Positions 6,590-59,500 of a stretch of DNA of 64,000 nucleotides are shown here, piece after piece. The position numbers were made by a program, and so were the translations under genes. The DNA comes from Bacteroidia bacterium. GTDB lineage: Bacteria; Bacteroidota; Bacteroidia; UKL13-3. Below the pieces are notes generated by a model. That model saw only the letters and a list, made by a program, of their open reading frames with translations. It had not been told where the DNA came from and ran no database searches. Numbering within the stretch: position 1 is the first letter of the stretch; the number at the start of each line of letters is the position of its first letter. The DNA is taken from positions 12,452 to 76,451 of the forward strand of contig JBILVK010000003.1 of the NCBI GenBank assembly GCA_044370475.1, given 5' to 3'.

Positions 6590-6940
6590 TGCTGGGACTT
6601 ACATTGCCTTTGGCCATTTTGTAAAAGTTCGGATTACAAATCCGAACTAGCACTGTTTTGTTTAATTAGCTGGAATGGTTAGCTGGGTTCGGATTACAAA
6701 TCCGAACTAGCCACTGTTTTGGTAGCTGGAAAGGATTTGTAATCCTTTCCTTAATTAACTCGCTTGCATAAAAATAGCTGGAAAGGATTTGCAATCCTTT
6801 CCTTAATCAACTCGCTTGCATAAAAATAGCTGGAAAGGATTTGTAATCCTTTCCTTAATTAACTCGCTTGCATAAAAATAGCTGGAAAGGATTTGCAATC
6901 CTTTCCTTAATCAACTCGCCTGCATAAAAACTAATCAACA
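6590..6940. repeat. Intergenic tandem repeat array. It has two ~57-bp units carrying the GTTCGGATTACAAATCCGAAC hairpin and four 60-bp units carrying the GGAAAGGATTTG(T/C)AATCCTTTCC hairpin.
   Basis: The periodicity and perfect palindromes were read directly from the sequence. The TGT and TGC loops alternate. Confidence 0.85.
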
Positions 6941-8224: not shown

Positions 8225-11200
8225 TTAACGAAGCAAGGTAACATTACCTTTTAGCGTTGCAAATTTACCTTTACGACCATACCCTGTGGCAACAAATACA
8301 TAAACATCTGAGGGCGCGGGAGCGCCATTAAACGTGCCATCCCAAGCGGCATACAAGTCAGTGGTTTCATAAACCGTTTCGCCCCACCTATTGTAAATGC
8401 GCAACTCAAAACTCTTGATAAAAACACCTTGTATCAAAAAACCATCATTCAGCAAATCTCCATTGCAGGTAAAGGCATTGGGTGCATACAACCTCGGCGC
8501 GGTATTCATGCAAGCGAGGTTCGACCAACTTTCAACCCAATTGCTGTCTTTCTGATAAGCCACCACCTGATAACAATAATCATCTTGATTAAAACTCAAA
8601 TAATTGTGCTTCACCGCAAAGGTATCTCCCATCATTTTTGTGGCTATCAATTGGTCAATTCCCAAACTATCATTCCTAAAAAATAACTCATACAGCTCCA
8701 CCCCAGAAGCCCATTCCTTGTAGGGATTCCAGCTCAACACAGGATCTGCCACCAACTTATCATTCTTCTCCATATCTATTTGCAACAACAAACTTTTAGC
8801 CATATTAGAGGGTTCTCCTAAACCACCACAAGCGTCTTCAATAAATACCAAATATTCATATGCGTAATTTTGTACATCCACGTCTGCATCCAAAAATGCA
8901 GTTTCGGTCTGATCCAAAACAATGCGCTTGAACATGCGATTAGGATCTAAACTCCTCTTTTCTATCACAAACTTATACGGAAATTTATGATTCCTCTTTT
9001 GCCATTGAACCAATACCTGCCTATTGTTTTCTACTGTAGCTCTCACCGTTCTGGTATGCGGTGTATTAGCCAAAAATAGTGGTATGGCCGCTGCAGTATC
9101 ACTCATAGAAACTTGTCCACCATAACTAGCCATTACCTTATAAAAAGTGAGCTTATGACAATACACCAAACTATCTACATAAGCTAAATTTGAACCAGGA
9201 ACTTCGCCAATCTTCTCAAATAAGTTCAGCTGCTCATTCAACCTATAAACCACATAAGTATTCACAGAATCCCAGCCCACATAAGGCGTCCAGTTCAGCT
9301 GTACCGCGTTCACCACACCATTTGCCTTAAGCTCAACTGTGGTATGTCTACGACTTGGTTCAGACCGATTATTACATACATCTACAGCCTGCATTTCATA
9401 AGAATAGTTATAGAAGCGTGTACTTAAATTGTTAAAATATTGAAAGGTATCGTTCAAGTTATTTACCGGCCTTTGTTGGCCAAAACTCACCCCATTCCAA
9501 TTGTAATGGATAAGGTAATAATCAAAATCTACCTCCGTATTTGATGGAAAGGAAAAGGATACCATCTCATCGGTTTCTACACTTGCTCTATAGGCAGTAG
9601 GCTTTTGGGGCGGAATAGTATCTTTAAAAACACTCACTGCTACAGAATCTATTTTTTGCCCCACACATCCTTGGTCGTCAATAACCTTAAACATCACTGG
9701 AATATTGCCCAAACGATTGCATAAGTAGGTGTGCGGACCAATTGAATAATGCAAAACTCCATCTATATTCCATACATGATAATTAACCGGAAATGGGTGT
9801 ACAACATCTCCCGTAAGTGTTATGCTTGCCCCCAAACATGCCTTCTTTTTACTGGCAAAAAAATCTACTTGTGGATTGGGAAAAACAGAAATCGAATCAA
9901 TAGGAGGCAATCCAACTTTACATCCTGCCGAATCAGTTAACGTTAAGTTTGGAATATACCTACCTGCTTGGGTATAGGTGTGTTTTGTATTGGCATTGGT
10001 ATCTATGGTTCCATCTCCCATATCCCATTCAAACTTTATAACATTGGTGGCAGTAGCACTAAAATCAACGGTTAAGGGTACACAACCATAATTGGGTGCA
10101 AGTGTAAAATTACCTTGTGGACCACCAATAACAATCATATCGGGAATGCTTTTAAATGAGGTGCATCCTATACTATCTGTAAGGGTAAGCTTAACAGAAT
10201 AAGACCCAGGCAAAAGATAAATACGGGTGGGATTTTGCAAACTTGATTGTCCGCCATCGCCAAACTCCCAATACCAATTCTTGATGGGTGTAGTGCCTGC
10301 TTTTGAATAATCGGTAAAATAAATTGGTGGTCCCGGACAGTTGATTTTCTTTGGGTTCGCATCAAAATCTACTTTAGGCGGACCCGTTACAATATGAAAA
10401 GTTTGGGCAAAAGAATCCTTGCAATTATAGGCATCCGTTGCTATCAATTTCACTAAAATGGAGGTATCTGCGCTATACACTTTTTTAAGGGTGCGGGCAG
10501 TAGAAATATGATTATCTATATTCCAAGTATAGTTCATTGGAGTTAATCCTACCAAATCATCAGCAATGGGCGTAAAGACAAATGTATCTGCTATACAATT
10601 CTTTTCTTGTTTAAAGGTAAACAGTGGCTTTGGTTTAGATATAAACAGTTTTCTATTTAATGAAAACCTGCATCCCATGCTATCCTCCACCACCAATTTC
10701 AAAGTAAATCCACTGTTCTGATAGGCAGGTGGAAGTTGATAAATATACCTAGAATAAATTGAATCGGGGTGCCCATAAACTGTTGAATCTCCTGTCCCCC
10801 AATACCATATTCTTTTGCGTATCGGTAAGTCGGTTCTAGATGAATCAACCACCTGCATGAGCATGGGCGCACAACCAAAAAAGGAACTTGCATTTAACTT
10901 CACTTGGCCTCCACTTACCAAAATAGAATCGGTTTTAAGTAAAGTGTACGAACACCCATTTTTATCCCTAATATTCATGGTAACAGAATACTTTCCAGGA
11001 TTAACCAAAAGCGCATTTACTTTATTTCCAGTATAGGTATTTCCACCTACCGTAAATTCACAAAATACAAAATCTGATGCAGGCTGTGTGGTATTGGTTA
11101 AGGTTAAGGTATGCGGCATACAAGCAACCTTTTCCGACATAGTAAAACTAGGTTTTATACCCGTTTGTATGTTTACACTTAAGGAGTGAACAGAGCTACA

Positions 11201-13231
11201 ACCTGTAAGGGTGTCTATGGCCAAAAGGGTAACCAAATATGTCCCACTGCTGTCATAATCATGGGTAACATTTCTAGAAGAAGATGTCCAACCATCACCA
11301 AAATTCCAAATAAATTTGTTCCCCCCACGGGTAAGGTTATTAAATGTCACAAACGACTTGGAGCAACCTGCTAAACTGGTAGTAAAACGTGCAATTGGAC
11401 CAAGAATTCGAATGTATTTTTGCTTAACCGTATCAGAGAGACAACCATGATGGTTTGCCACCAAACCAACATCAAAGGTGCCGGTATCTTTAAACACAAT
11501 TTGATTCTCGTTTTGTGATAAAATGATACTCGTATCAATTGGCGTCCAGGTATACTTTAAATTGGGTAAATTAGGAATGCTATTCTTGGTAAAAACCACG
11601 GGTTGTTCACTGTAACAATAAACCCTTTTAAGACTAGAAAAATCAAGCTTTACAGGCATTCCTACCTTCACCGTATCCACTTTTGAAAAGCTGCAACCTT
11701 CTACCGTAGTAGCCAATAATGTTACCAAATAAATACCTGTATCTAAATACGTATAATTTGCATTTTTACTCGTTGCATTTGCACCTACCTTCCCAAAATT
11801 CCAGTTAAACTGTGTAAAAGGTGGAGTATTGGTATCATTCACAAAAAATTGAACCGCCAAAGGAAAGCAACCAGATCTTGGCTGAATAAGAGTTCCAAGC
11901 ATTGCTGGCTTTACCACTATATAGGCAGGCCTCACCAAAGTATCCTTGCATCCATTTGCATGTGTGGTTATCAATGAAACAGTATAGGTACCATTTTGCA
12001 GGTAATTGGCGCTTGGATTTTTTTGGCTTGAACTTGTACTATTTCCAAAGTTCCATTGCCAAGAAACAGCATTGATGCTAGAGTCGCGAAAATTAACGTT
12101 TGCGGGCGTTTTGCAAAACCACAATCTATTGGCATCAAAATTACTTTTAGAAGAAGGCAATACCGTAAAAAAGGAAGGCTTCAAGGCATTTACTATGCAA
12201 TTTCCAATCTTAACCTTGAGTTCCAATGAGTAGGTGCCTGCTGCCAAATTATTTAAAACGGGATGTTTAAAATTTGAAACCAAAGCCCCATTTAAATACC
12301 ACTCATAGGTTATGCCAAAAGTGTCGAAATTGGTAGTATTGAATAGGGCAATTTTTCCAGGCGCACATAAATCTGGAGTACCACTTATGATAAAATTGGG
12401 AACCACATCTACTACCTTAATAAAGGCTGGCTTCACCACATTTACCGTACATTGAGCCGCATTTGTAACCCGCAATGAAACATTAAATTGTCCGTGCGCT
12501 GCATAATTTGCCGCAGGATCTTTAGCGGTGCTCTGGTTGCCATTGCCAAAGTCCCATTTGTAACTGTAGACCGATGCCGGAGAAACGCTACTAGTAAATT
12601 GTGTTGCAAAGGGTGCGGTACAACCAAAGAAAGGGCTGGCCGTAAAATCAACTATAGGTTTGGTCTGAACCAATATATAATTATTTTTAATCAATGCTTT
12701 TTTACACCCGTTGCCATCCGTAACCATCAAACTGATATGGTAAGAACCTCCATTGCTAAATGTGTTAAAAGGATTCTTAAGATTAGAAACCTGACCATCT
12801 CCAAAGTCCCACGACCAAGCAGAAATGGTACTTAATGGCGAGCTGCTTATATCAGTAAAACCAATCTTAAGAGGAGCACAACCAGAGGTACTTGTAACTT
12901 GAAAATCAACGCTAGGTAAAGGATAAACAGTGATATAATCAACCATTGTTTTGATATTGGTACCTAAAGAATTACTTACGGTTAATTTTACGGTATATTT
13001 TCCAGCAGTAACAAAAGAAGCCGATGGATTTTGAAGGGTAGATTTATTTCCATTGCCAAAATCCCATAAATAATTAATGGGATTATTGGTAGAAAGGCTG
13101 GTAAACTGCACCAGCATGGGCGCACAGCCATACGTTTGATTCGCAGAAAAATTGGCAACAGGTTGTGTAAATCCTTTAAAACTAATTAAAAGAAGCACAA
13201 AATATAGCAATTTCCTGGGTATGATAGGCAC
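8225..13231 (-). CDS. Giant PKD-repeat surface protein with a gliding-motility-associated C-terminal domain (T9SS type B sorting domain).
   Basis: 1668 aa. Signal peptide present, many PKD-like repeats (WDFGDG, YTVKLTVSN, GCxxxxxxxI), and FN3-like segments. C-terminal ...YNRWGETVYETTDLYAAWDGTFNGAPAPSDVYVFVATGYGRKGKFATLKGNVTLLR is typical of the CHU_C / T9SS type B domain. Confidence 0.8.
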   Translation of the reverse strand: MPIIPRKLLYFVLLLISFKGFTQPVANFSANQTYGCAPMLVQFTSLSTNNPINYLWDFGNGNKSTLQNPSASFVTAGKYTVKLTVSNSLGTNIKTMVDYITVYPLPSVDFQVTSTSGCAPLKIGFTDISSSPLSTISAWSWDFGDGQVSNLKNPFNTFSNGGSYHISLMVTDGNGCKKALIKNNYILVQTKPIVDFTASPFFGCTAPFATQFTSSVSPASVYSYKWDFGNGNQSTAKDPAANYAAHGQFNVSLRVTNAAQCTVNVVKPAFIKVVDVVPNFIISGTPDLCAPGKIALFNTTNFDTFGITYEWYLNGALVSNFKHPVLNNLAAGTYSLELKVKIGNCIVNALKPSFFTVLPSSKSNFDANRLWFCKTPANVNFRDSSINAVSWQWNFGNSTSSSQKNPSANYLQNGTYTVSLITTHANGCKDTLVRPAYIVVKPAMLGTLIQPRSGCFPLAVQFFVNDTNTPPFTQFNWNFGKVGANATSKNANYTYLDTGIYLVTLLATTVEGCSFSKVDTVKVGMPVKLDFSSLKRVYCYSEQPVVFTKNSIPNLPNLKYTWTPIDTSIILSQNENQIVFKDTGTFDVGLVANHHGCLSDTVKQKYIRILGPIARFTTSLAGCSKSFVTFNNLTRGGNKFIWNFGDGWTSSSRNVTHDYDSSGTYLVTLLAIDTLTGCSSVHSLSVNIQTGIKPSFTMSEKVACMPHTLTLTNTTQPASDFVFCEFTVGGNTYTGNKVNALLVNPGKYSVTMNIRDKNGCSYTLLKTDSILVSGGQVKLNASSFFGCAPMLMQVVDSSRTDLPIRKRIWYWGTGDSTVYGHPDSIYSRYIYQLPPAYQNSGFTLKLVVEDSMGCRFSLNRKLFISKPKPLFTFKQEKNCIADTFVFTPIADDLVGLTPMNYTWNIDNHISTARTLKKVYSADTSILVKLIATDAYNCKDSFAQTFHIVTGPPKVDFDANPKKINCPGPPIYFTDYSKAGTTPIKNWYWEFGDGGQSSLQNPTRIYLLPGSYSVKLTLTDSIGCTSFKSIPDMIVIGGPQGNFTLAPNYGCVPLTVDFSATATNVIKFEWDMGDGTIDTNANTKHTYTQAGRYIPNLTLTDSAGCKVGLPPIDSISVFPNPQVDFFASKKKACLGASITLTGDVVHPFPVNYHVWNIDGVLHYSIGPHTYLCNRLGNIPVMFKVIDDQGCVGQKIDSVAVSVFKDTIPPQKPTAYRASVETDEMVSFSFPSNTEVDFDYYLIHYNWNGVSFGQQRPVNNLNDTFQYFNNLSTRFYNYSYEMQAVDVCNNRSEPSRRHTTVELKANGVVNAVQLNWTPYVGWDSVNTYVVYRLNEQLNLFEKIGEVPGSNLAYVDSLVYCHKLTFYKVMASYGGQVSMSDTAAAIPLFLANTPHTRTVRATVENNRQVLVQWQKRNHKFPYKFVIEKRSLDPNRMFKRIVLDQTETAFLDADVDVQNYAYEYLVFIEDACGGLGEPSNMAKSLLLQIDMEKNDKLVADPVLSWNPYKEWASGVELYELFFRNDSLGIDQLIATKMMGDTFAVKHNYLSFNQDDYCYQVVAYQKDSNWVESWSNLACMNTAPRLYAPNAFTCNGDLLNDGFLIQGVFIKSFELRIYNRWGETVYETTDLYAAWDGTFNGAPAPSDVYVFVATGYGRKGKFATLKGNVTLLR

Positions 13232-13249: not shown

Positions 13250-14215
13250 AATTTAATACTTTATCTATTTTATTCTAATCCCAAAGGGATAACTTGTATT
13301 AAATCCCGAAGGGATAACACAATCATAATCCCGTAGGGATGACACAACTATAATCCCGTAGGGATAACACCATCATAATCCCAGAGGGATGGCCACATAT
13401 TTAATCCCAGAGGGATGGCATATATATAATTAACTAGATTGCCTAGACAATCATAATCCCGAAGGGATAACACAATCATAATCCCAGAGGGATAACACCA
13501 CCATAATCCCGGAGGGATAACAAAACTATAATCCCGAAGGGATAACACAACTATAATCCCGGAGGATGACATAAACATAATCCCGGAGGGATGGCACGTA
13601 TATAATCCCCAAGGGATAACACAAACATAATCCCAGAGGGATGATATGTATATAACACCCGATGGATAAAACGAATATAACCCTGTAGGGGTGGCATATT
13701 AATAATGCCTTAGAGAATACATTGTCTTGTCCCCTCTATGGTTATATTTATGCCACCCCTCTGGGGTTATAACTAGTTGTTATATTCTCTGAGCTAGATA
13801 CATAGCACCCCTCCGGGGTTATAATTTGTTTATATATATCACCGCAGGGCTCACACAATCATAACCCCAGAGGGGTGGCACTGTCTTGCCCCTTCTATGG
13901 TTATATTTATGCCACCCCTCTGGGGTTATAATTTGTTGGTATATATATTCGAACTAGATATATGCCACCCCTCCGGGGTTATAATTTGTTGGTATATCCA
14001 TCTAACTAGATACATGACACCCCTCCGGGGTTATGGTTTTAGTGATGCATTGGAATTTATAATCATTTCAGCCATAACATTTGTCCCAAGAATGACGTCA
14101 CGATTTTACCCCAAAGGGGTAAAATAATTATAATCCCGGAGGGATGACATATATATAATTCACTAGATTGCCTATAAAATCATAACCCCAGAGGGGTGAC
14201 ATATATATATACCCC
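13250..14215. repeat. Array of about 15 units with 25-bp period (ATAATCCCNNAGGGATRRCAC..., short ATCCC-NNN-GGGAT hairpin), then about 5 units of ~62 bp carrying the ACCCC-TCT-GGGGT hairpin, then a ~160-bp unique-like segment that recurs at 17912-18076.
   Basis: Direct reading. The conserved portion is about 20 bp with only about 5 bp variable per unit. Confidence 0.85.
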
Positions 14216-17200
14216 CTAATCCTTTTTGATATAGATTTTCTTCATCACTTTCACATCATCACCAAAGGTGAAATCCATAAAATATATCCCTTCACTGAAT
14301 GCAGACAAGTCAACATCCATCTCAGTATTTCCTATTTCAAATTTCTGACTAAGCACCACTTTTCCAAAAACATCAAATGCCTTTATCTCTTTCAAATCAT
14401 TACCCTTGTAACTCATGGTAAACCTACCATTGTTAGGATTGGGATATAAATGAATATTTCTATCACCCAAATTATCGTCAATCCCATTGACCTTATTAAT
14501 GGTTATATCCTTATAAACCGTATCACCTTTACATCCATTATTCGCAAGTTCCACCAATTTAATTTGGTCAACACCCACTGTGGTCCATTTAATTTGAATG
14601 CTATTAGAAGTACTGTTTCCCAAACCGTTATTAAAATACCAACTATACGTAGAACCATTACGCGCAGGAACTTGATAAACCACTGTACTAAAATAATCAA
14701 TTACAGAATCTCCAATGATTGGTTTGGTAACAGGATTGTTTACTATATAAACCGTATTGGCAAAAGAATCCATGCAATTACCGGCAATAGAACCATACAA
14801 CTTAATTGGATAGCTATTTTCTACGCTAGCCGGAAAACTAATCACCAAACTTGCACTGGTTGAAGTATCACCATTGCCATATTTCCACAATCTATTGGTA
14901 TTACCAACTGTTGTATCGGTAAAGATAAACTGGTTACCATTTAAACATTGAATCTGTTTATTGATGGTAAAACCCACCTTTAATTTAGGAAGAACATTTA
15001 TAAAAATAAAATTGGAAGTATCCAAAGCAGTTCCAGAATAAACAAGCCTACGATACCAAACAGAACCATTAAGTATTGGAGGAGCATAATTTTGGTTTGT
15101 ATTTAAACCAACTGCAGCTGTATAAGGCCCTGTAGCAGCTGCTGTAGCCTGTATCCACAAATAAGTAAAAATACCATTGCCATTGGTAGGAACCGACCCT
15201 GCCAATGAAATTGGACTTGAACCGGCACATATCGTTTGGTCTGAACCAATAGTATTGTTACCAATATTTGGATTGGATGTTTGCGTAGAACTTTCGGCAA
15301 TTGCAAAATCACTGAATCCTGTTAGGCCACTTCTTGAAACATAAAAGGAATCATTCTTCCCAACTGGCGCAACATGCACACCTGGGATAGTCCAGGGTGA
15401 TGTTGAATTAACTCTTTTAAGCAAGGCCAATTTTTGGTACTGACTCACACCAGTAACATTGTTACCAAAAGCCTTAACAGTATAGGTGCCGCCATTTAGG
15501 CCATTGCCACTGCTAATTTTCCAATAGCCGTCGTCAATGGTTTTAAAAATTGAATCTGTGCCTTGTATCAAAGGTAAGCCACTGTTTCCTGGAAGCGCAC
15601 TCACATAGCTTCCACTTAATGTACCTCCTAAAGTTGGTGCATTGGTGTATTGAACTTGTATCGTTTTTAATTTACTGTTTGAACCAACTGGAAATAGAAA
15701 AACGCCGTTGCCTGCTCCTATCCAAAGGCTCATTTTGCCCCGGATACGTCCGGTGCCAGTTTGCACTACTACCGCTGGATTGCTTGAGTTACCTATGGTT
15801 AATGAATCGGTTGTTGCTATATCTAAAACACCCTGACCAACTGTTAACGACCTACTAATTAATCGGCTGCCAGGAAGTGTTATGGGTGCTGTATTGTTTA
15901 AAGTTACATTGAAGGGCACAAGGGTGTTCGACCATAAATAACTACTTGGTGTGGTTGCAACAGTATTGGCGAACATCAACGTTGAATTAGGACTTGAATA
16001 AACAACACTACCCGCTCCGCTAAATGCACCACTGATATAATTTACTGTGCTTCCTGTTCCAACAACCAAGTTACTATCCAAAACAAAACCAGCAGCATTG
16101 TTAAATACAAAAGTAATGCTATCATCAACATTGGAACGCAAACGCAAGGTTTGAGCGGTATTGCCATTGAATACAATTTGCGGATACAAAGAGCCACTGG
16201 TATTTTTTACCAAACCACCATATTGAAAAAAGTTACCGCCTACAAATAATTGCCCAACTTTTGGATGCGCTCCAATAAAATTTAAGGTCCCACCATTTTG
16301 CAAATAATTACCTTTAACATATAGTCGCGAACCTAAATCGTTGGCATTATTAGAATAATTGCGAATCTGCAAGCCACCTCCGTTTAAGGTTAAGTTGCCT
16401 TCAATGGTGGCAGTCCTATTGCTATCAGGATGGTTAAATTCAACATAACTAGAACCAGTATTGTTGATGGTTACGTTTCCTTTTATTAAAACAGGCACAA
16501 GTGAATTTGTATAATTCGACCTAGCAATAAAATGCAGCGGTCTACTATTTCCATTGGTATTCACCACTAAATTAGAAATACTATCAGGCAAGGTAATAAG
16601 CGCTGTATCCGACCCTGGATGTCCGTTAATAACAACTTGCGAACCCGGCAGAAAAATTCCTTTTAAACTATGCTCTGTTGCATTTGCTGGGAAGTTTAAG
16701 ATCACCCGCCCACTTGGTTGAACTTGTAAAATTGAATCTCTAAAGTCGGCATTTCCTCTACCTCCAGTATAAATAAAATCCCCATTCAAAACTACTTTTG
16801 AACGCAAACTACTTGTTCGGTGAAAGTAAATTTTGTTTGGATAATTTGTTAAATTTATCTGATCAGAAAGTATTTCAAAAGTCCCATTTATTGTAACCAG
16901 ACATTTTTGAAAATGCACAGTTAAAGAATTTTGATATGGTTCAAAAGCACCTTTTTTTGCTGTAATACTATTGACTGTAAACTTACCATTAATAATTGCT
17001 TCACTAGCATTGGATTGGTTCCCAACATCAAAAAAAGCATAAAAACCTGGTATCCATAAATTCCCATTTCCGTAAACATTTAACTCACAATTAGTATCTA
17101 CCTGTAATGAAATTCCACCAACCCCATTTATAGCAAAACAACTTGTGTAGCTATTAGTATTTGATTTACAATGAAGAGTTACTTTCCTGCCATTTGTAAT

Positions 17201-17461
17201 TCTAAGTGTCCCCATTTGAAAAAAGTAATAGTTTGGATTAGAAACATAAATTGCATTTGCAACAATTGTATCTCCACCCAATCCAGAGGTAATAATAATG
17301 GTATCTGTAACAGTAGAAATATTTCTAGAAGGGCTAAAATTTGATGGTGTATAAAAGTTCTCATTATTTGCCCCAATCCAAGTATAAACTGCTGCGTTTA
17401 CCTTTGGTTGAAAAATGAAAAAGATCGCTAAAATGGCAAAGGCTTTAAAAAAAATTTTCAT
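14216..17461 (-). CDS. Secreted adhesin-like repeat protein with a T9SS type A (Por) C-terminal sorting domain.
   Basis: Track ORF is 14216..17500. The signal-peptide start MKIFFKAFAILAIFFIFQPKVNA lies at 17461. The C-terminus ...NIHLYPNPNNGRFTMSYKGNDLKEIKAFDVFGKVVLSQKF...GIYFMDFTF matches the T9SS CTD. Confidence 0.75.
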   Translation of the reverse strand: MKIFFKAFAILAIFFIFQPKVNAAVYTWIGANNENFYTPSNFSPSRNISTVTDTIIITSGLGGDTIVANAIYVSNPNYYFFQMGTLRITNGRKVTLHCKSNTNSYTSCFAINGVGGISLQVDTNCELNVYGNGNLWIPGFYAFFDVGNQSNASEAIINGKFTVNSITAKKGAFEPYQNSLTVHFQKCLVTINGTFEILSDQINLTNYPNKIYFHRTSSLRSKVVLNGDFIYTGGRGNADFRDSILQVQPSGRVILNFPANATEHSLKGIFLPGSQVVINGHPGSDTALITLPDSISNLVVNTNGNSRPLHFIARSNYTNSLVPVLIKGNVTINNTGSSYVEFNHPDSNRTATIEGNLTLNGGGLQIRNYSNNANDLGSRLYVKGNYLQNGGTLNFIGAHPKVGQLFVGGNFFQYGGLVKNTSGSLYPQIVFNGNTAQTLRLRSNVDDSITFVFNNAAGFVLDSNLVVGTGSTVNYISGAFSGAGSVVYSSPNSTLMFANTVATTPSSYLWSNTLVPFNVTLNNTAPITLPGSRLISRSLTVGQGVLDIATTDSLTIGNSSNPAVVVQTGTGRIRGKMSLWIGAGNGVFLFPVGSNSKLKTIQVQYTNAPTLGGTLSGSYVSALPGNSGLPLIQGTDSIFKTIDDGYWKISSGNGLNGGTYTVKAFGNNVTGVSQYQKLALLKRVNSTSPWTIPGVHVAPVGKNDSFYVSRSGLTGFSDFAIAESSTQTSNPNIGNNTIGSDQTICAGSSPISLAGSVPTNGNGIFTYLWIQATAAATGPYTAAVGLNTNQNYAPPILNGSVWYRRLVYSGTALDTSNFIFINVLPKLKVGFTINKQIQCLNGNQFIFTDTTVGNTNRLWKYGNGDTSTSASLVISFPASVENSYPIKLYGSIAGNCMDSFANTVYIVNNPVTKPIIGDSVIDYFSTVVYQVPARNGSTYSWYFNNGLGNSTSNSIQIKWTTVGVDQIKLVELANNGCKGDTVYKDITINKVNGIDDNLGDRNIHLYPNPNNGRFTMSYKGNDLKEIKAFDVFGKVVLSQKFEIGNTEMDVDLSAFSEGIYFMDFTFGDDVKVMKKIYIKKD

Positions 17462-17558
17462 GTTTGTTTTTTTTGAATTTAGGCTAAATATTAATTGCAA
17501 TTTATTGGCTACTTAGTGAAAATAAATAGAGGCAAATTAAGGCATTAGGCTTAGTAAA

Positions 17559-17626
<68 letters not shown>

Positions 17627-17739
17627 CTCAGTAAAATCAGGCAGTTTCAGCCTCTATAAAAAACAAACCAACGCCAAATATTTCCTCATAAAACTGAACA
17701 CATTTTGCCATCATGTTCAGTTTTTCAATAAAAATTGAA

Positions 17740-18190
17740 CATGATTATTTGAATTATATAATCCCTTCACCCGGCTAAAGAAATGTCACCTCTCTGGTAG
17801 TATATATATTCCACCCCTCTGGGGTTATAATTTGTTGTTATATTCTTCGAACTAGATATATGACACCCCTCTGGGGTTATAGTTTTTTGTTATACTCTTC
17901 GAACTAGATACATGACACCCCTCTGGGGTTATGGTTTTAGTGATGCATTGGTATTTATATTTATCTCAGCCAAAACATTTGTCACAAGTATGACGTCACG
18001 ATTATACCCCAAAGGGGTAAAATCGTGATAATCCCGGAGGGATGGCATATATATCAATCACTAGATTGCCTAAACAATAATAATCCCGGAGGGATGACAC
18101 ATATTTAATCCCGGAGGGATGGCATATATATATATCACCGGAGGGTGACACATATATATTCAGTTCAGACCTCCAAAGAATAGCAATTAG
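17740..18190. repeat. Second hairpin-repeat block (ACCCC-TCT-GGGGT units and ATCCCGGAGGGAT units). It includes a ~160-bp segment about 85-90% identical to 14018-14176 and in the same orientation.
   Basis: Direct reading and comparison with the 13900-14200 region. Confidence 0.85.
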
Positions 18191-18208: not shown

Positions 18209-18661
18209 TTGTTGCTAATGAAAAACACCTTATACATTAAATCCTTACTGCTTTTATTAATGGGATTTTTGCTTTTTAATCATCAAACTCAAGCCCAAGA
18301 TATTCAAGATTCTAGTGTTGAAAATGAAGTTATTGTTGAAGGAGAAATCATGACTTATGTGGAGCAAATGCCCGAATTTTATGGGGGCAACGAGCAACTT
18401 TATACATATGTAGTTAAAAATTTAAAATACCCAAACCTAGCCAAAGAAAACAAAATTGAAGGCACTGTTTATGTTGGCTTTGTTATAACCAAAGAAGGCA
18501 AGGTAACCAACATCACCCAATTAGGGAAAGCTCAAGGTTGGGGATTAGATGAAGAAGCCATTAGGCTTGTAAAATCAATGCCAGATTGGAGACCTGCCAA
18601 ACAAAATGGCAAACCTGTAAATTGTAAATTCACCTTACCTATCAAATTCAAACTCAATTAA
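18209..18661 (+). CDS. TonB C-terminal domain protein (short paralog).
   Basis: 150 aa with a signal peptide. MPEFYGGNEQLYTYVVKNLKYP...GKPVNCKFTLPIKFKLN parallels the other two TonB-CTD proteins in the window. The start may instead be M5. Confidence 0.6.
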   Translation: MLLMKNTLYIKSLLLLLMGFLLFNHQTQAQDIQDSSVENEVIVEGEIMTYVEQMPEFYGGNEQLYTYVVKNLKYPNLAKENKIEGTVYVGFVITKEGKVTNITQLGKAQGWGLDEEAIRLVKSMPDWRPAKQNGKPVNCKFTLPIKFKLN

Positions 18662-20007
18662 TGCGTATACATTTCATTTCTATTGGCGGTGCTGTAATGC
18701 ACAATATGGCCATCGCTCTTCATAAAAAAGGATATCAAGTAACAGGTACCGACGACGAAATTTATGAGCCTGCCTTATCTCGCTTAAACAAATACGGAAT
18801 TCTACCCAAAGAGTTTGGCTGGAAACCAGAACTTATTACCAAAGATCTAGATGCGGTAATCTTGGGAATGCACGCCCGCAAAGACAATCCAGAGATTGCA
18901 CGTGCGCAAGAACTCGGACTAAAAATATATTCCTTCCCAGAATATATGTATGAGCAAACCAAAGATAAACTTAGAATTGTGGTAGGTGGCAGTCACGGTA
19001 AAACCACCACCACCGCCATGATATTGCATGTATTAAACTACCACAATATGGAGTTTGATTACTTGGTAGGCTCACAATTAGAAGGCTTTGAAACCATGGT
19101 AGGCTTTAGCAATACCTCCAAAATTGCCGTTTTTGAAGGCGATGAATACCTCACTTCTGCCCTCGATTTACGTCCCAAATTTCACTTATACCACGCCAAT
19201 ATTGGCATCATAACTGGCATTGCTTGGGATCATATCAACGTGTTTCCAACCTTTGAAAACTATGTTTGGCAGTTCCAAAAATTTATCACCGATATTCCCA
19301 AAGATGGCGCCATCATTTACTGTGCAGCCGATTCAGAAGTCGAAAAATTATTGGTTCAGACCGAAACGCTTTGCGAAAAAATTGCCTATACCACACCCAA
19401 ATTTTCTGTAGAAAACGGTCAGTTTATTTTACCTCCAGAAAGCACCGGCGCCTCTGCTCCTATTGCACTTTCTTTCTTTGGCACGCACAACTTACAAAAC
19501 ATGATGGCCGCCAAACATGCTTGTATAAAAGCCGGTCTGAACCAAGCACAATTTTACGAGGCCATACAAAGTTTTAAAGGCACTGCCAAGCGTTTAGAAA
19601 CCATCAAAGAAACGCACAATTGCCTAGTGATTCGCGACTTTGCACATGCGCCATCCAAACTAAAAGCAACGGTGAATGCCGTGCGCGAATTATACCCTTC
19701 ACGCAAGCTCATTGCTGCTTATGAATTGCATACTTTTAGCAGTCTCAACAAGGACTTTTTACCACATTACAAAGACACTTTAGACAAGGCAGATATCAGG
19801 GCCGTTTTGTTTAGCAAACATGCCCTAGAAATTAAAAAAATGCCCATGCTTTCTGTTTCAGAAGTAGCCAAAGGATTTGGCGAAAACGTACAAGTATTTA
19901 CCGACAAAAACGAGCTACGCGCCTTTATAGACAGCCATTTCACAGGCAACGAAAACCTACTCCTCATGAGCAGCGGAACCTTTGATGGCATGAGTTTGGA
20001 GTTTTAA
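18661..20007 (+). CDS. mpl: UDP-N-acetylmuramate:L-alanyl-gamma-D-glutamyl-meso-diaminopimelate ligase (murein peptide ligase, Mur ligase family).
   Basis: 448 aa. The N-terminus MRIHFISIGGAVMHNMAIAL...VTGTD and the ATP-binding VGGSHGKTTTTAMILHVL closely resemble E. coli Mpl. Confidence 0.75.
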   Translation: MRIHFISIGGAVMHNMAIALHKKGYQVTGTDDEIYEPALSRLNKYGILPKEFGWKPELITKDLDAVILGMHARKDNPEIARAQELGLKIYSFPEYMYEQTKDKLRIVVGGSHGKTTTTAMILHVLNYHNMEFDYLVGSQLEGFETMVGFSNTSKIAVFEGDEYLTSALDLRPKFHLYHANIGIITGIAWDHINVFPTFENYVWQFQKFITDIPKDGAIIYCAADSEVEKLLVQTETLCEKIAYTTPKFSVENGQFILPPESTGASAPIALSFFGTHNLQNMMAAKHACIKAGLNQAQFYEAIQSFKGTAKRLETIKETHNCLVIRDFAHAPSKLKATVNAVRELYPSRKLIAAYELHTFSSLNKDFLPHYKDTLDKADIRAVLFSKHALEIKKMPMLSVSEVAKGFGENVQVFTDKNELRAFIDSHFTGNENLLLMSSGTFDGMSLEF

Positions 20008-28510: not shown

Positions 28511-28543
28511 GAAAAGTTCGGGTTTTAAATACCCAAACTTTTC
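28511..28543 (-). terminator. Probable rho-independent terminator of valS (hairpin GAAAAGTTCGGGT/ACCCAAACTTTTC overlapping the stop codon, followed by a U-rich tract on the minus strand).
   Basis: Inverted repeat read from the sequence. The T-rich run lies at 28490-28508 on the minus strand. Confidence 0.4.
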
Positions 28544-31239
28544 TTTAACACAGCAATTTTGGCGGCGGCATCGGCCTTTTTCTGACGCTCTTTCTCTACC
28601 AAATCGGGCTTGGCATTGGCCACAAATTTCTCGTTACTCAATTTGGCATCCACCGACTTCATAAAACCTTCCAAGTACACAATTTCCTTCTCCATTTTTT
28701 CGCGCTCTGCGGTTTCATCCACCTGTAGGTTCAGCACAACAAAAACCTCATCTGTATCTACAGGCAATAAAGTACTGCCTTCAGGCTGCGTTTGAACAAA
28801 CAAAATGCTACTTACATTGGCCAACTTCTTAATTAAAAATGCATAAGGTGCATACAAACTTTCATCCTTGGCTTTGATAAAAATTTCAAAGGCCTCTTTC
28901 GGACTTAATCCTTTGGCATTTCTTAGGTTTCTAATTTGTTGAATGGTCTCAAACACCCTTGATAAATCTGGTGAAACCAGCTTACTTGCAACTGGATATG
29001 GGGCAATACAAATTGAATCTCCTGCTTTACGTTCACCAATATTTTGCCAAATTTCTTCGGTAATAAATGGCATATAAGGATGCAATAACTTCATTAAACC
29101 CTCAAAATAAGCTATGGTATGGTTGTAGGTACTTTCATTCATCGGTTCACCAAAAACAGGCTTCACCATTTCCAAATACCAAGCACAAAAATCGTCCCAA
29201 ATAAGCTTATAAATACTCATTAAGGCCTCACTCAATCGATACCCTTTAAACTTCTCTTCAATGTCTATTAATGCAGCAGATAACCTACCCGCAAACCAAT
29301 CTGCATTGAGCTTATTTGCTGAAAGAATCTCTGGGCTGAACCCATTATCTGGCTTCACTTCCCAGCCTTTTACCAACCTAAAAGCATTCCATATTTTGTT
29401 GGCAAAATTTCTTCCTTGCTCAACCTGACTTTCATCAAACAAGATATCATTACCCGCAGGAGAACACAACAACATGCCCATGCGCACACCATCTGCACCA
29501 AACTGCGCAATTAAATCCAATGGATCTGGCGAATTACCCAAAGATTTGCTCATCTTCCTGCGCTGTTTATCGCGCACAATGCCGGTATAATATACATTGC
29601 TAAAAGGCTTCTCCCCTCTCCACTCATAACCCGCCATAATCATACGCGCCACCCAGAAAAACATAATCTCTGGAGCAGTTACCAAATCATTGGTTGGATA
29701 AAAATGCTTGATATCTTCATTCTCTGGATTCTCAAAACCATCAAAAACAGAGATAGGCCACAACCACGAACTGAACCAAGTATCTAGTACGTCTTCGTCT
29801 TGGTGCAAGCGAAGAGGCTGGGTAGGCTTCTGGCCGCTGGCTTCTGGCTGCTGGCTATTTGAAGTTGGCTGCTGGCTGTTGCTTGCTGGCTGCTGGCTAT
29901 TTCTAGATTCTGCAATTTGCAAAGCTTCTGCTTCTGTTTTAGCTACTGCTACAAATTGATTGTTTTCGTCGTACCAGGCTGGGATACGCTGGCCCCACCA
30001 CAATTGCCTACTAATGCACCAATCTTTTATATTGTCGATCCAATGCTTGTAGGTGTTCTTCATTTTGGCCGGATGAAACTGAATTTCATCACTCATCACC
30101 GCATCCAAAACCTGCGGATTACGCTCCATGAATTTCTTCATGTCAATCCACCATTGAAGACTCAACCTTGGCTCAATAACAGCACCTGTGCGCTCACTTG
30201 TTCCAACCTGATTCTTATATTCTTCAATCTTTACAATATGTCCAGCCTCCTCTAAATCGATGGCTATTTGTTTGCGCACCGCAAAGCGATCCTTGCCAAT
30301 ATAGCGTTCATCCTTAGCCTCTGCGTTTAAAAACCCACTTTCATCTAAGATGTCAATTACAGGCAAGCCGTATTTCTGACCCAATGCATAATCGTTTACA
30401 TCATGCGCAGGAGTAACCTTGAGACAACCCGTACCAAAATCTGTAGCCACATACTCATCCGCAATAATTGGAATTTCGCGGTTCAAAAACGGCACCAATG
30501 CCTTTTGACCAACCAAGTGCTTAAAGCGCTCATCTGTTGGATTTACACAAATGGCAACATCCGCCAAAATGGTCTCCGGACGCGTAGTAGCGATGGTTAC
30601 AAACGCACCACTACCATCAGCCATAAAATACTTTATATAGTATAATTTTGATTGAACCTCCTTGTGAATTACCTCCTCATCACTCAAGGCAGTTTTGCCA
30701 AGCGGATCCCAATTTACCATGCGCAAACCACGGTAGATAAGTCCCTTATTATAAAGATCTATAAACACCTCAATAACCGCTTCGCTCAATTTTGGCTCCA
30801 TGGTAAAACGCGTTCTATCCCAATCGCAACTCGCACCTAATTTCTTAAGCTGATCCAAGATAATGCCGCCATATTTTTCTTTCCATTCCCAAGCATACTT
30901 CAAAAAATCCTCCCTACTCAAATCAGACTTCTTGATACCACGCTCACGCAACATTTGCACCACCTTGGCCTCGGTTGCAATAGACGCATGGTCTGTTCCA
31001 GGCACCCAGCATGCATTCTTACCCTCCATACGCGCTTTTCTAACCAAGACATCCTGTATGGTATTATTAAGCATGTGACCCATGTGTAAAACACCCGTAA
31101 CATTAGGTGGCGGAATTACTATGGTAAAAGGCTCCTTATCTGGATTTGGTTCAGCATGAAAAAACTTTTGGTCGATCCAATACTGATACCACTTATTTTC
31201 AAAATCCTGTGGTGAATATGTTTTTGCTAGTTCGGTCAT
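28525..31239 (-). CDS. valS: Valine--tRNA ligase. It carries an unusual in-frame low-complexity insert SQQPASNSQQPTSNSQQPEASGQKPTQP.
   Basis: 904 aa. Class I aaRS motifs PNVTGVLHMGH (HIGH) and KMSKS. DTWFSSWLWP is present and the C-terminal coiled-coil is characteristic of ValS. Confidence 0.9.
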   Translation of the reverse strand: MTELAKTYSPQDFENKWYQYWIDQKFFHAEPNPDKEPFTIVIPPPNVTGVLHMGHMLNNTIQDVLVRKARMEGKNACWVPGTDHASIATEAKVVQMLRERGIKKSDLSREDFLKYAWEWKEKYGGIILDQLKKLGASCDWDRTRFTMEPKLSEAVIEVFIDLYNKGLIYRGLRMVNWDPLGKTALSDEEVIHKEVQSKLYYIKYFMADGSGAFVTIATTRPETILADVAICVNPTDERFKHLVGQKALVPFLNREIPIIADEYVATDFGTGCLKVTPAHDVNDYALGQKYGLPVIDILDESGFLNAEAKDERYIGKDRFAVRKQIAIDLEEAGHIVKIEEYKNQVGTSERTGAVIEPRLSLQWWIDMKKFMERNPQVLDAVMSDEIQFHPAKMKNTYKHWIDNIKDWCISRQLWWGQRIPAWYDENNQFVAVAKTEAEALQIAESRNSQQPASNSQQPTSNSQQPEASGQKPTQPLRLHQDEDVLDTWFSSWLWPISVFDGFENPENEDIKHFYPTNDLVTAPEIMFFWVARMIMAGYEWRGEKPFSNVYYTGIVRDKQRRKMSKSLGNSPDPLDLIAQFGADGVRMGMLLCSPAGNDILFDESQVEQGRNFANKIWNAFRLVKGWEVKPDNGFSPEILSANKLNADWFAGRLSAALIDIEEKFKGYRLSEALMSIYKLIWDDFCAWYLEMVKPVFGEPMNESTYNHTIAYFEGLMKLLHPYMPFITEEIWQNIGERKAGDSICIAPYPVASKLVSPDLSRVFETIQQIRNLRNAKGLSPKEAFEIFIKAKDESLYAPYAFLIKKLANVSSILFVQTQPEGSTLLPVDTDEVFVVLNLQVDETAEREKMEKEIVYLEGFMKSVDAKLSNEKFVANAKPDLVEKERQKKADAAAKIAVLKKSLGI

Positions 31240-31500
31240 TTTGGTCTTTGGTCGTTGGTCTTTGGTCGTTAGTCGTTGGTCTTTAGTCGTTGGGAAGGCC
31301 TCTGGCTGCTGGCAACTGGCTTCTGGCTGTTAGCTTTTAATTTGAGTATTTTGGCAAATTGGTCGTTAGTCTTTGGTCGTTAGTCTTTGGGAAGGGCCTC
31401 TATCTGCTGGCTTTGTCAGCCGTAGCTTAAGCGAAGGCTGAGCTTATGGCTATGAGCTTAGGAATTTAACAAAGCTTGTTCTTTGGACAAATTTCATATT
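31240..31500. repeat. Low-complexity oligomer-repeat spacer (GGTCTTTGGTCGTT..., CTGGCTGCTGGC..., AGCTTAAGCGAAGGCTGAGC) immediately 5' of valS.
   Basis: Direct reading. Related modules occur at 5682-5712, 34741-34816, 53075-53211 and 59268-59500. Confidence 0.8.
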
Positions 31501-31517
31501 AATTATAGCATTGACTA

Positions 31518-31870
31518 TCATAAGCGAGTTTTAAAATTCAATATTATAAAATACTTAATAAAGCCCAAAGGACAATTTACCAAATTATCAATATTCCTGA
31601 CCCCGCGAAGCCGAAGGCCAGCAACCAAATGGTATTCATTTACGAAGTAAATCATTACCATCCCCCTCAACCTCAAGCGAAGCCGAAGGCCAGCAAACCC
31701 TACCTCAAGCGAAGCCGAAGGCAAAGCACCCAAATGGTATTCATTTACGAAGTAAATTAATACCATCCCCCTCAAGCGAAGCCGAAGGCCAAGCACCCAA
31801 ATGGTATTCATTTACGAAGTAAATCAATACCATCCCCCTCAACCTCAAGCGAAGCCGAAGGCCAGCGCCC
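31518..31870. repeat. Three copies of a ~66-bp unit, each with a 15-bp-stem hairpin ATGGTATTCATTTAC-GAA-GTAAAT(C/T)AATACCAT. GCGAAGCCGAAGGCCA motifs are interspersed.
   Basis: Direct reading. The track ORFs 31518..31811 and 31741..31956 are artefacts of this repeat. Confidence 0.85.
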
Positions 31871-34700: not shown

Positions 34701-34816
34701 ATGCACAGATTAATCTTATAAAAAAAATAAAAGCTAAAGGCCAACAGCTAACGGCTAACAGCCAGGAGCCAGTTGCCAGGTGCCAGTAGCCTCCCCCAAA
34801 GACCAACGACCAAAGA

Positions 34817-35491
34817 CTAAAGACCTAATTCCGGTCTCCGCTCCTTAGTCCGCTCCAAACTTTGCTCATGACGCCATTCATCTATTTTGGCTTGGTGACC
34901 AGATAACAAAACCTCAGGCACCTTCCATCCTTTATACTCCGCTGGACGGGTGTAGACTGGCGGACTAATTAAATCGTCTTGAAAAGAATCGCTTAAGGCA
35001 GATGTTTCATCATTTAATGCACCCGGAATTAACCGAACCACTGCATCTACCATGGCGGCGGCAGCCAACTCACCACCTGTTAATACAAAATCGCCTAAGC
35101 TCAATTCACGCGTTACTAAGTGCTCACGCACGCGCTCATCAACTCCTTTATAATGTCCGCACAGGAAAGCAATATTCTTTTTAGTGCTTAATTCATTCGC
35201 AATTTTCTGCGTAAATGGCTCGCCATCCGGACTCATATAAATGATTTCATCGTAGCTTACCTTTTCTTTTAATTGGTTCAGACAGCGGTCTATGGGTTCT
35301 ATGCTCATCACCATGCCCGCCCCACCACCAAAGGGGTAATCATCTACGTTTTTATGTTTAGACAGCGAATAATCTCTAATATTATGCAATTCGATCTGAA
35401 CCAATTCACGCTCAATGGCACGTTTGATAATGGATTGCGAGAAGGGTCCATCAAAAATTTGGGGAAACAAAGTTAAAATGTCAATTTGCAT
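34817..35491 (-). CDS. trmD: tRNA (guanine37-N1)-methyltransferase.
   Basis: [13 protein letters not shown]...[13 protein letters not shown] is classic TrmD. The conserved start is at 35491 (the track ORF extends to 35539). Confidence 0.85.
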
Positions 35492-53074: not shown

Positions 53075-53211
53075 CTTTTGGTCTTTGGTCTTTGGTCTTT
53101 AGCTGTTAGCTGTTAGCTGTTAGCTGTTGGCTATTGGCTTATACTATTCTTCATTTTTTAATCTGTGCAACTGGGCCTTTTTTCTTACTATGGTCTATGG
53201 ACCATGGACTA
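53075..53211. repeat. 137-bp oligomer-repeat spacer between nuoD and nuoE: (GGTCTTT)3, (AGCTGTT)4, GGCTATTGGC, CTATGGTCTATGGACCATGG.
   Basis: Direct reading. Same module family as 31240-31500 and 5682-5712. Confidence 0.85.
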
Positions 53212-59267: not shown

Positions 59268-59500
59268 TTTTTTTTAGTTATGCTGTTGGCTATTAGCTTT
59301 TGGCTTTTGCTTTGTTTACCGACTTTGTTTACAGAAGCCTTGGCGTAAGTTAAAGTTATTAATTATGAATTATGAGGTAAGAGTTAAGAGTTATGCTTCT
59401 GGCAGCTGGCCTCCGGCTTGTCTGCCAAAGCTTAAGCGAATGCTGAGCCTCTGGCTCTTTCTGTTTCTCTTTCTGTTTCTATTCTACTGTTTTTTTTAAT
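59268..59500. repeat. Oligomer-repeat spacer between serA-like and serC (GCTGTTGGCTATTAGC, TTATGAATTATGAGGTAAGAGTTAAGAGTTATG, AGCTTAAGCGAATGCTGAGC, CTTTCTGTTTCTCTTTCTGTTTC).
   Basis: Direct reading. It shares modules with 31400-31450 and 53110-53130. Confidence 0.75.

Follow-up and report, generated by a model that had tools for sequence, protein, structure and literature searches.

The window analysed here, a 64-kb stretch (64,000 nt) of contig JBILVK010000003.1 from an uncultured member of the Bacteroidia, carries two intergenic arrays of a very small hairpin-forming repeat, which sequence comparison places in the same class as hairpins found around genes for Y1 transposase-like (HUH) proteins in other genomes. 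Array 1 (13273-14204) is part of ~980 bp of repeats that fill the spacer between the start, at 13231, of a gene for a 1668-aa PKD-repeat/CHU_C protein of the type IX secretion system (T9SS; 8225-13231, - strand), whose start codon lies ~40 nt from the first unit, and the stop codon, at 14216, of a gene for a 1094-aa protein with a Por_Secre_tail (T9SS) sorting domain (14216-17500, - strand). Array 2 (17806-18153), which a preliminary description of this DNA had missed, lies 3.6 kb from array 1 on the other side of the latter gene, followed by a TonB_C gene that diverges from it (18209-18661, + strand) and by mpl (Mur ligase family, Mpl; 18661-20007). The protein enclosed by the arrays is rare, with 5 protein clusters among 5.8 billion sequences, and the 37 further open reading frames (ORFs) are ordinary chromosomal genes (valS, rplS, trmD, exbBD-tonB, the nuo operon etc.) or have no Pfam match.

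The repeat unit and the two arrays

Once oriented by their purine-rich loop, all units represent one polar element of ~21-25 nt, (C/T)ATA-A[T/C]CCC-NNA-GGG[A/G]T-GRCA, in which a 5-bp stem closes a 3-nt NNA loop and a conserved unpaired tag, GRCA(T), follows on the 3' side of the hairpin, the opposite strand reading (A)TGYC at the 5' side. The dense array with a ~25-bp period reported in the preliminary description is real: among 16 consecutive 25-bp register positions (13273-13699) 13 hold perfect hairpins, and the window contains 17 exact copies of ATCCCNNNGGGAT vs. 0.02 expected from dinucleotide shuffles (exact ACCCCNNNGGGGT: 12 copies vs. 0.05), every exact copy of either lying within 13278-14197 or 17813-18120. 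The three off-pattern positions are a unit lacking one G (13551-13574), a defective unit (13655) and an ACCCT/GGGGT variant (13680). Of the ~30 copies of the unit in array 1, fourteen stand head-to-tail at the 25-bp period, the remainder being reverse-oriented at ~52 bp or arranged as inverted pairs, and Tandem Repeats Finder accordingly called periods of 25 bp (13.6 copies, 13302-13642) and 53 bp (2.4 copies, 13909-14034) in array 1 and of 52 bp (17804-17938) and 25 bp (18028-18158) in array 2, together with higher-order periods of 50, 74, and 124 bp. The long units, previously described as a separate ACCCC type with a period of ~62 bp, were measured at 52-53 bp and consist of the same core unit in reverse orientation joined to a CTAG-containing linker.

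What had been taken for progressive degeneration of the units turned out to be mostly a switch between two complementary stem variants, ATCCC/GGGAT and ACCCC/GGGGT. Each of the 135 stem cells is paired in the alignment of 28 units, counted as 27 distinct rows, and at the second stem position 17 units have U-A and 10 have C-G, a double change with neither T..G nor C..A hybrids; one unit has a wobble. When the 13 in-register 25-bp units were counted over their ten stem columns, the three defective register positions being set aside, the stems showed 0/130 departures from the column majority vs. 57/195 in the loop, flank, tag and linker columns (Fisher p = 9e-15). Since the stems are invariant while loops, flanks and linkers vary, the hairpin is the selected feature, probably one recognised by a protein, in line with the recognised hairpins of the preliminary description. 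The whole array is moreover far more structured than its mononucleotide shuffles (z ~-14.6).

Array 1 opens with block A1 (13273-13423, + strand), six head-to-tail units of 25/26 bp of the form (C/T)ATA-ATCCC-NNA-GGGAT-RRCA plus a 4-nt linker (hairpin starts 13278, 13303, 13328, 13353, 13378, 13404). A linker with ACTAGATTGCCTAG (13424-13450), which recurs at 14153-14179 and 18051-18077, leads to block A2 (13451-13649, + strand), eight head-to-tail units that include the one lacking a G, the other hairpins starting at 13456, 13481, 13506, 13531, 13580, 13605, and 13630. Two transitional units follow (13650-13699, + strand), the defective one at 13655 and ACCCT-GTA-GGGGT at 13675-13699 with one wobble pair. 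Beyond them come the REPIN-like inverted doublet 1 (13676-13771; arms 13676-13705 / 13742-13771, 80% complementary; DNA fold ~-23.7 kcal/mol), a reverse-oriented unit (13800-13824, - strand; + strand text TAGC-ACCCC-TCC-GGGGT-TAT) and inverted doublet 2 (13861-13929; DNA fold -23.3 kcal/mol), whose arms at 13861-13880 and 13910-13929, 29 nt apart, form a perfect 20-nt inverted repeat and bear out the orientation flip noticed earlier within the block. The right part of the array consists of two reverse units at 52-53 bp with a CTAGAT-containing linker (13960-14036, - strand; hairpins at 13967 and 14019), a non-hairpin module M containing TGACGTCA (14037-14102), the palindrome TTTTACCCCAAAGGGGTAAAA with a 10-bp stem on the ACCCC/GGGGT core (14103-14127), and two forward units split by a ACTAGATTGCCTA linker (14128-14204, + strand; hairpins at 14133 and 14185); 33-nt terminal inverted arms bound the region 13902-14209.

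Array 2 comprises three reverse units at a 52-bp period (17806-17934, - strand; hairpins at 17813, 17865, and 17917), a copy of module M with the palindrome TATACCCCAAAGGGGTAAAA (17935-18025), and forward units (18026-18153, + strand; hairpins at 18031, 18083, and 18108) that end in a variant TCACC-GGAG-GGTGA unit (18130-18153). The order of reverse units, module M, palindrome and forward units is common to both arrays, and a 267-nt direct repeat on the + strand, with a left copy at 13948-14214 and a right copy at 17846-18112, is 87% identical between them. The gene 14216-17500 is bracketed by both arrays as direct repeats, the right third of array 1 being the repeated part.

Association with Y1 genes and conservation among relatives

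A forward scan of a genome collection for two ATCCCNNNGGGAT hairpins 11-13 nt apart, a bare palindromic dimer pattern that matches both strands, returned 91 loci from many phyla, mostly unrelated ones, and in 12 of the 91 there was a Y1 transposase-like ORF, most often with hairpins immediately beside it. A metagenome scan for head-to-tail dimers gave 73 loci, 10 of them with a Y1 ORF; the window's own population was not among the loci returned by the two scans. The hairpins flanking these genes match the window units in the A before the stem, in the ATCCC/GGGAT and ACCCC/GGGGT variants, in the NNA loops and in a G[A/G][C/T]A(T) tag. At the closest analogue, locus L150, at least 22 head-to-tail AATCCC-GTA-GGGATGAACAT units form a 1.5-kb higher-order array ending 40 nt before the Y1 start codon, and at L168 hairpins lie on both sides of the Y1 gene. 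In the reverse test, six loci were picked by the protein alone (Emticicia, Phnomibacter, two Saprospiraceae, Tenuifilaceae, and one other): all 28 tagged hairpins lay within 1 kb of the Y1 gene, with none in the other ~90 kb of the six loci, and further compensated stem variants (ACCCT/AGGGT and ACCTC/GAGGT) were found among them.

A covariance model, R1, was built solely from 28 window units and run with filters off on the window, where it gave 32 matches, all in the two intergenic arrays and none in the other ~62 kb. In ten test loci (168 kb) it gave 44 matches, 43 within ~1 kb of six Y1 genes and one weak stray (E = 0.52), while there were no matches in the four loci without Y1 (~70 kb) and none in the controls L192 and L196. 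The units of the window are therefore of the same class as the hairpins around subclass-1.2 Y1 genes, and Y1 genes with this class of hairpin occur in Bacteroidota, Chloroflexota, Planctomycetota, and other metagenome-assembled genomes (MAGs). The linkers and module M, compared by BLAST with all fetched loci, gave unit-level matches only, and L194, a contig added later, was the sole sharer of the start of module M.

The Y1/HUH gene beside the hairpins is highly conserved and catalytically intact. All 22 hairpin-adjacent ORFs have the Y---Q--HH signature together with a conserved tail of the (F/Y)(D/N)E(K/R)Y type at the C terminus, and the HUH motif ([D/N]HxH) is present in 21/21 full-length ORFs, a truncated 89-aa fragment (L106) stopping short of it. 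The hairpin-adjacent proteins have the features of subclass 1.2 (~148-155 aa, DH[IV]H, WQ, Y---Q--HH, C-terminal tail). Homologues are 152-158 aa long, with 204 representatives at 50% clustering (E <= 1e-30), and their identity is 80-90% across Saprospiraceae, Cyclobacteriaceae, Flavobacterium, Phnomibacter, Emticicia, and Tenuifilaceae, i.e., across Bacteroidota orders. The closest solved structure is that of IS608 TnpA, with an alignment that spans the HUH motif and the catalytic Tyr, and in the only protein tested with NCBIfam, that of locus L011, the IS200/IS605 transposase model scored 60 bits vs. a cut-off of 55. A survey of this gene class described subclass 1.2 as low-copy, present in Cyanobacteria and Bacteroidetes, generally without IS200-type terminal structures and "REP: no" with regard to repetitive extragenic palindromic (REP) sequences, the REP detector used there accepting no stem shorter than 7 nt and no tag other than GTAG/GTGG (Quentin et al., 2018; PMC6006769). 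No paper linking subclass-1.2 or Bacteroidota Y1 proteins to such hairpins was found in the literature searched, an absence that is no proof of novelty. Besides the single-domain proteins, ~290-aa proteins (P0246, P0262, P0273-P0275, and others) match the Y1 query in two stretches each and are tandem-duplicated two-domain versions of the subclass-1.2-like protein. The Y1 genes of L175 (858-1319) and L183 (10001-10462), which come from different taxa, both have the same LptD/OstA, MlaD, Amidase_3 cluster within a few kb, and this shared neighbourhood hints at vertical inheritance rather than mobility of the insertion sequence (IS) type.

As for the locus itself, the Mpl protein encoded next to array 2 assigns the organism to the uncultured Bacteroidia ('Bacteroidetes bacterium B1(2017)', 85%; UKL13-3, 71%). 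Ten metagenome contigs of the same population carry 9 differences in 20.8 kb, none in either array; the idea that assemblies break at the arrays was rejected, as the contig ends of L003-L010 are scattered. Relatives with Mpl 96%, 86%, and 85% identical have no hairpin in 4, 21, and 21 kb, respectively, and a different gene content at the spot, and synteny with L190 resumes at the right edge of array 2 (~18163). Nor were hairpins found at the loci of 55%-identical homologues of the enclosed gene (L195, L196). The activated-sludge contig L194 encodes an orthologue of the enclosed gene (78% protein identity) with arrays at both orthologous positions, in the order TonB-side flank, ~740-bp array, (TTTA)n microsatellite, gene, hairpin units, rve-family IS, more units, and PKD gene; the IS (4466-5826 of L194) splits in two the array that corresponds to array 1. 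DNA identity between the window and L194 is 79% over the enclosed gene and 71% over the PKD gene, and at 79% identity ten neutral stem positions would all be expected to survive in ~9% of units (0.79^10), whereas most units are intact in both species, R1 matching 16 times in L194. The arrays differ in size, with ~965 bp in the window vs. ~300 bp in L194 for array 1 and ~360 vs. ~740 bp for array 2, and copy number, which the preliminary description proposed to compare across strains, differs between the species. Variants are lineage-specific, with GGGATAACAC units in the window only and ATAGCCCC...GGGGTGGTAT units in L194 only, and the nearest relative of a unit lies in the same genome for 20/28 window units and 13/16 L194 units. 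Since nearest neighbours are mostly of the same genome, variants lineage-specific and array sizes different, the pattern among the unit sequences is one of in-lineage amplification and homogenisation and not of passive decay. By sequence comparison, then, the units form a polar mini-palindrome family that is extragenic, pairing-constrained, and clustered, of the same class as the hairpins around Y1 genes, and maintained with turnover in two species.

Other sequence features of the region have counterparts in L194. An (AAAT)17 microsatellite (17557-17623; 901-955 in L194) precedes the start of gene 14216-17500 by ~60-120 nt, with an inverted repeat of 16-bp stem, ATCATGTTCAGTTTTTCAAT/ATTGAACATGAT (17710-17745; ~775-815 in L194), farther upstream, and the two are possible promoter-spacing or phase-variation and operator elements. 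Elsewhere in the window, valS (28525-31239, - strand) contains a 21-nt tandem repeat of GGCTGCT-type heptamers (29825-29903) that encodes an in-frame insertion of ~25 aa (…NSQQPASNSQQPTSNSQQPEASGQKPTQP…), absent from the ValRS of L191 and L193. Tandem heptamers (TTGGTCG, TTAGCTG, ACTATGG, AGCCAGG, and others) also fill the spacers 31241-31390, 34728-34825, 53077-53211, and 59282-59480, the nuoE-nuoD spacer inside the nuo operon being one of those filled in this way, and are reminiscent of the short tandemly repeated repetitive (STRR) heptamers of cyanobacteria. Further intergenic hairpin-repeat families occur at 6630-6710 and 6723-6930, where GTTCGGATTACAAATCCGAAC is present twice and a 52-bp unit (95% identity) is repeated in tandem to four copies, with a 10-bp-stem hairpin GGAAAGGATTTGYAATCCTTTCC in every copy, and in the valS-rplS spacer (31606-31860), with three copies of the 33-nt hairpin ATGGTATTCATTTACGAAGTAAATNAATACCAT, each preceded by CAAGCGAAGCCGAAGGC. 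From 1 to 60 kb the cumulative GC skew declines, to a minimum at ~60-61 kb, where gene orientation switches. A replication origin at that point is unsupported, with neither dnaA nor dnaN near and an aminotransferase, a rhomboid protease, and a phosphoesterase as the local genes. Read as a sign of replication direction, the skew would put the tag-5' form of most units on the lagging-strand template, but it may merely follow gene orientation, and this argument was set aside.

Possible origin of the arrays

We consider it probable, short of being confident, that the block is a cluster of very small REP-type elements, similar to a bacterial interspersed mosaic element (BIME), that is propagated by a Y1 enzyme acting in trans. 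The mechanism would be that established for IS200/IS605 TnpA and for TnpA-REP (PMC6006769, PMC3333891, PMC8266576). The hairpins would be substrates of a subclass-1.2-type Y1 enzyme encoded elsewhere in this genome, which would bind the units as folded single-stranded DNA (ssDNA), presumably during replication, with the tag serving as guide at the foot of the hairpin, and would cut next to the tag; the cut ends would rejoin at equivalent sites of near or distant units, whole 25-bp units being gained or lost in this way, possibly with the assistance of slippage or unequal recombination. Cutting and rejoining of whole units would explain the strict 25-bp period and its multiples, the head-to-tail runs, the inverted doublets, and the homogenisation within a genome, as well as the survival only of units with intact stem and tag. 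Much more tentatively, and with more doubt than belief, the arrays could be part of a phylum-spanning, previously unrecognised system of the REPtron type, in which a subclass-1.2 Y1 services 13-nt mini-hairpins and builds or maintains head-to-tail arrays by cutting and rejoining units, the arrays persisting across speciation beside surface-protein genes that evolve fast and perhaps promoting there the insertion or rearrangement of genes, or tuning expression. Secondary, exapted effects on the T9SS genes are possible in either case, such as hairpins at the 3' end of 14216-17500 and a long structured spacer before the PKD gene.

Several observations weigh against propagation by a Y1 enzyme. No Y1 gene or ORF is present in the 64-kb window. 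The model for REP-associated tyrosine transposases (RAYT, NCBIfam NF047646) scored 19.3 bits with the L011 protein vs. a cut-off of 80. In the six protein-picked loci the hairpins are confined to the vicinity of Y1, remote dispersal being documented only by the window and L194. Within the population of this organism no copy-number polymorphism was found, the copies of array 1 (2 contigs) and those of array 2 (8 contigs) being the same throughout, so that no turnover is seen at that time scale. The tag is not GTAG, head-to-tail arrangement dominates, unlike in classical REPs, where it is rare or negligible (PMC3733652), and the 5-bp stem is weak, a single unit folding at ~-3 kcal/mol as DNA.

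The arrays might instead act in cis on the T9SS genes, at the level of DNA or RNA, as terminators, attenuators, 3'-end protectors, or an operator array or spacer for the PKD gene, the link to the transposase being incidental. Array 1 does run from the stop codon of one gene to within ~40 nt of the next start codon, L194 has both arrays in the corresponding positions, and the palindromic 13-mer resembles the binding site of a dimeric protein. A simple scan found 15 terminator-like sites vs. 4.5 +/- 2.2 expected, and the hairpin at 14197-14185 (- strand), the first after the stop codon of gene 14216-17500, is in terminator orientation with a T-rich tail behind it, which is a weak hint of a terminator role for that hairpin. 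The stems of these sites are, on the other hand, only 5 bp long, U-tracts are poor, and most sites point against transcription. Loci L191, L190, and L193 retain the PKD and mpl genes without any array, elsewhere the units surround the unrelated Y1 gene and not T9SS genes, and Rfam 15 has no matching family at gathering thresholds, a relaxed search giving generic miRNA-precursor-like matches on the long inverted doublets only. A primarily cis-regulatory origin seems to us rather unlikely on this balance.

The preliminary description had seen in the block an expanding and decaying minisatellite. A plain minisatellite would be a short palindrome amplified by slippage or unequal crossing-over and subject to neutral drift, with no dedicated enzyme or function. 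The strict period with its 50-, 74-, and 124-bp higher-order periods, a copy number that varies between species, and the defective units at 13551, 13655, and 13680 would all suit this view, which is nevertheless improbable: drift would hardly leave stems invariant while loops and linkers vary, nor yield two stem variants that are exactly complementary, and the same core is found on either strand and in inverted doublets. Furthermore, a model of the window units detects hairpins around Y1 genes in distant taxa, in agreement with a REP-like family, and the stems have outlasted the ~9% neutral expectation in a species at ~79% DNA identity; intact canonical hairpins at the same two positions in another species indicate maintenance or regeneration rather than simple decay.

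Less probable still, and in our opinion very unlikely, is that the arrays are decayed left and right ends, or derivatives resembling miniature inverted-repeat transposable elements (MITEs), of an ordinary IS200/IS605 element whose transposase gene has been replaced. The two arrays bracket one gene and share the 267-nt direct repeat, as repeats bracket Y1 in L175 and L168, the region 13902-14209 has 33-nt terminal inverted arms, and the one Y1 protein tested, that of L011, was called an IS200/IS605 transposase by NCBIfam. But the enclosed gene encodes a 1094-aa T9SS protein without Y1 domain, and the same arrangement in L194 makes it old and stable; dozens of hairpins are present per locus, not one per end, and the Y1 proteins behave as conserved genes of differing neighbourhoods rather than as multicopy IS, and the literature gives them as low-copy (PMC6006769). 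A degenerate or orphan array of clustered regularly interspaced short palindromic repeats (CRISPR), already dismissed in the preliminary description, is scarcely conceivable in spite of its superficial look of regularly spaced short palindromes, since the 13-nt hairpins, at a 25-bp period, are only 12 nt apart, the stretches between them consist of mutually related tag and linker sequence and are not unique, unit orientation flips, and no Cas domain was found by Pfam in the 44 ORFs tested across the window, all of at least 100 aa.

Propagation by a trans-acting Y1 enzyme would, if true, provide an orphan and very conserved enzyme family with a candidate substrate, offer a simple system for the study of HUH-enzyme amplification of tandem units, and explain repeats that confuse CRISPR finders and break assemblies in Bacteroidota metagenomes. 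Nearly all known REPs with domesticated Y1 transposases are from Proteobacteria; the evidence presented here suggests that repeats of subclass 1.2 exist but are too small, with a 5-bp stem and a non-GTAG tag, for the detectors used, and that mini-hairpins can form long head-to-tail arrays mimicking CRISPR.

Comparison with known systems

The REP/BIME elements of Proteobacteria and their RAYT (TnpA-REP) proteins, together known as REPtrons (PMC3333891, PMC3116915, PMC8266576), share with the units described here short extragenic palindromes with an unpaired tag at the foot, an occurrence as singletons, inverted doublets, and clusters with linkers, compensatory changes in pairing, and a single HUH/Y1 gene flanked by the same hairpins, here seen in other genomes (22 forward loci and 6/6 protein-picked ones). 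They differ in stem length (5 bp with a 3-nt loop here, typically 7-20 bp in REPs), in the tag (GRCA/TGYC here vs. GTAG), and in arrangement, as head-to-tail tandems at a fixed 25 bp dominate here, 14 units of array 1 and most of the rest being placed head-to-tail, and inverted dimers are limited to two doublets, while REP families seldom contain head-to-tail dimers (PMC3733652). The associated protein also stands nearer to IS608 TnpA than to RAYT models, a comparison made with the L011 protein only. Another resemblance is with the CGTC/TGTC-tagged REPs, which count Bacteroidetes among their hosts (Di Nocera et al., 2013; PMC3733652) and have a [C/T]G[T/C]C-type tag, a stem starting with A-T pairs, and an extragenic location. 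The tag is closest to the TGTC variant. In the CGTC families as published, stems are of 8-9 bp and loops of 4-5 nt, a CCA tail is present, clusters or head-to-tail dimers are rare, and no associated transposase was found (PMC3733652), whereas the present units, compared by description and not by consensus sequences, have a shorter stem and loop, usually occur in clusters, and are associated with a Y1 gene.

CRISPR arrays are alike in being regularly spaced, short, intergenic, and palindromic, and differ in their unique spacers, in their single orientation vs. the mixed orientations seen here, in their cas genes, and in a far longer period, with repeats of 23-47 bp and spacers of similar length. 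The pneumococcal BOX element (A-Bn-C) is likewise composite, with variable tandem internal modules and a strong predicted structure; we know of no sequence relationship between BOX and the present units, nor of a dedicated HUH enzyme for it. With the subterminal hairpins of IS200/IS605 elements (IS608, ISDra2) the units would share recognition of an ssDNA hairpin with a guide or tag at its foot by a Y1/HUH protein, but no transposase lies between the window hairpins, which number dozens instead of one per end, and the protein found beside such hairpins in other genomes is conserved at 80-90% across orders and is not a multicopy identical IS. With respect to the published account of subclass 1.2 TnpA-Y1 (PMC6006769), finally, the present data differ in that all 22 genes examined sit among mini-hairpins and that the genes occur also in Chloroflexota, Planctomycetota, and other MAGs.

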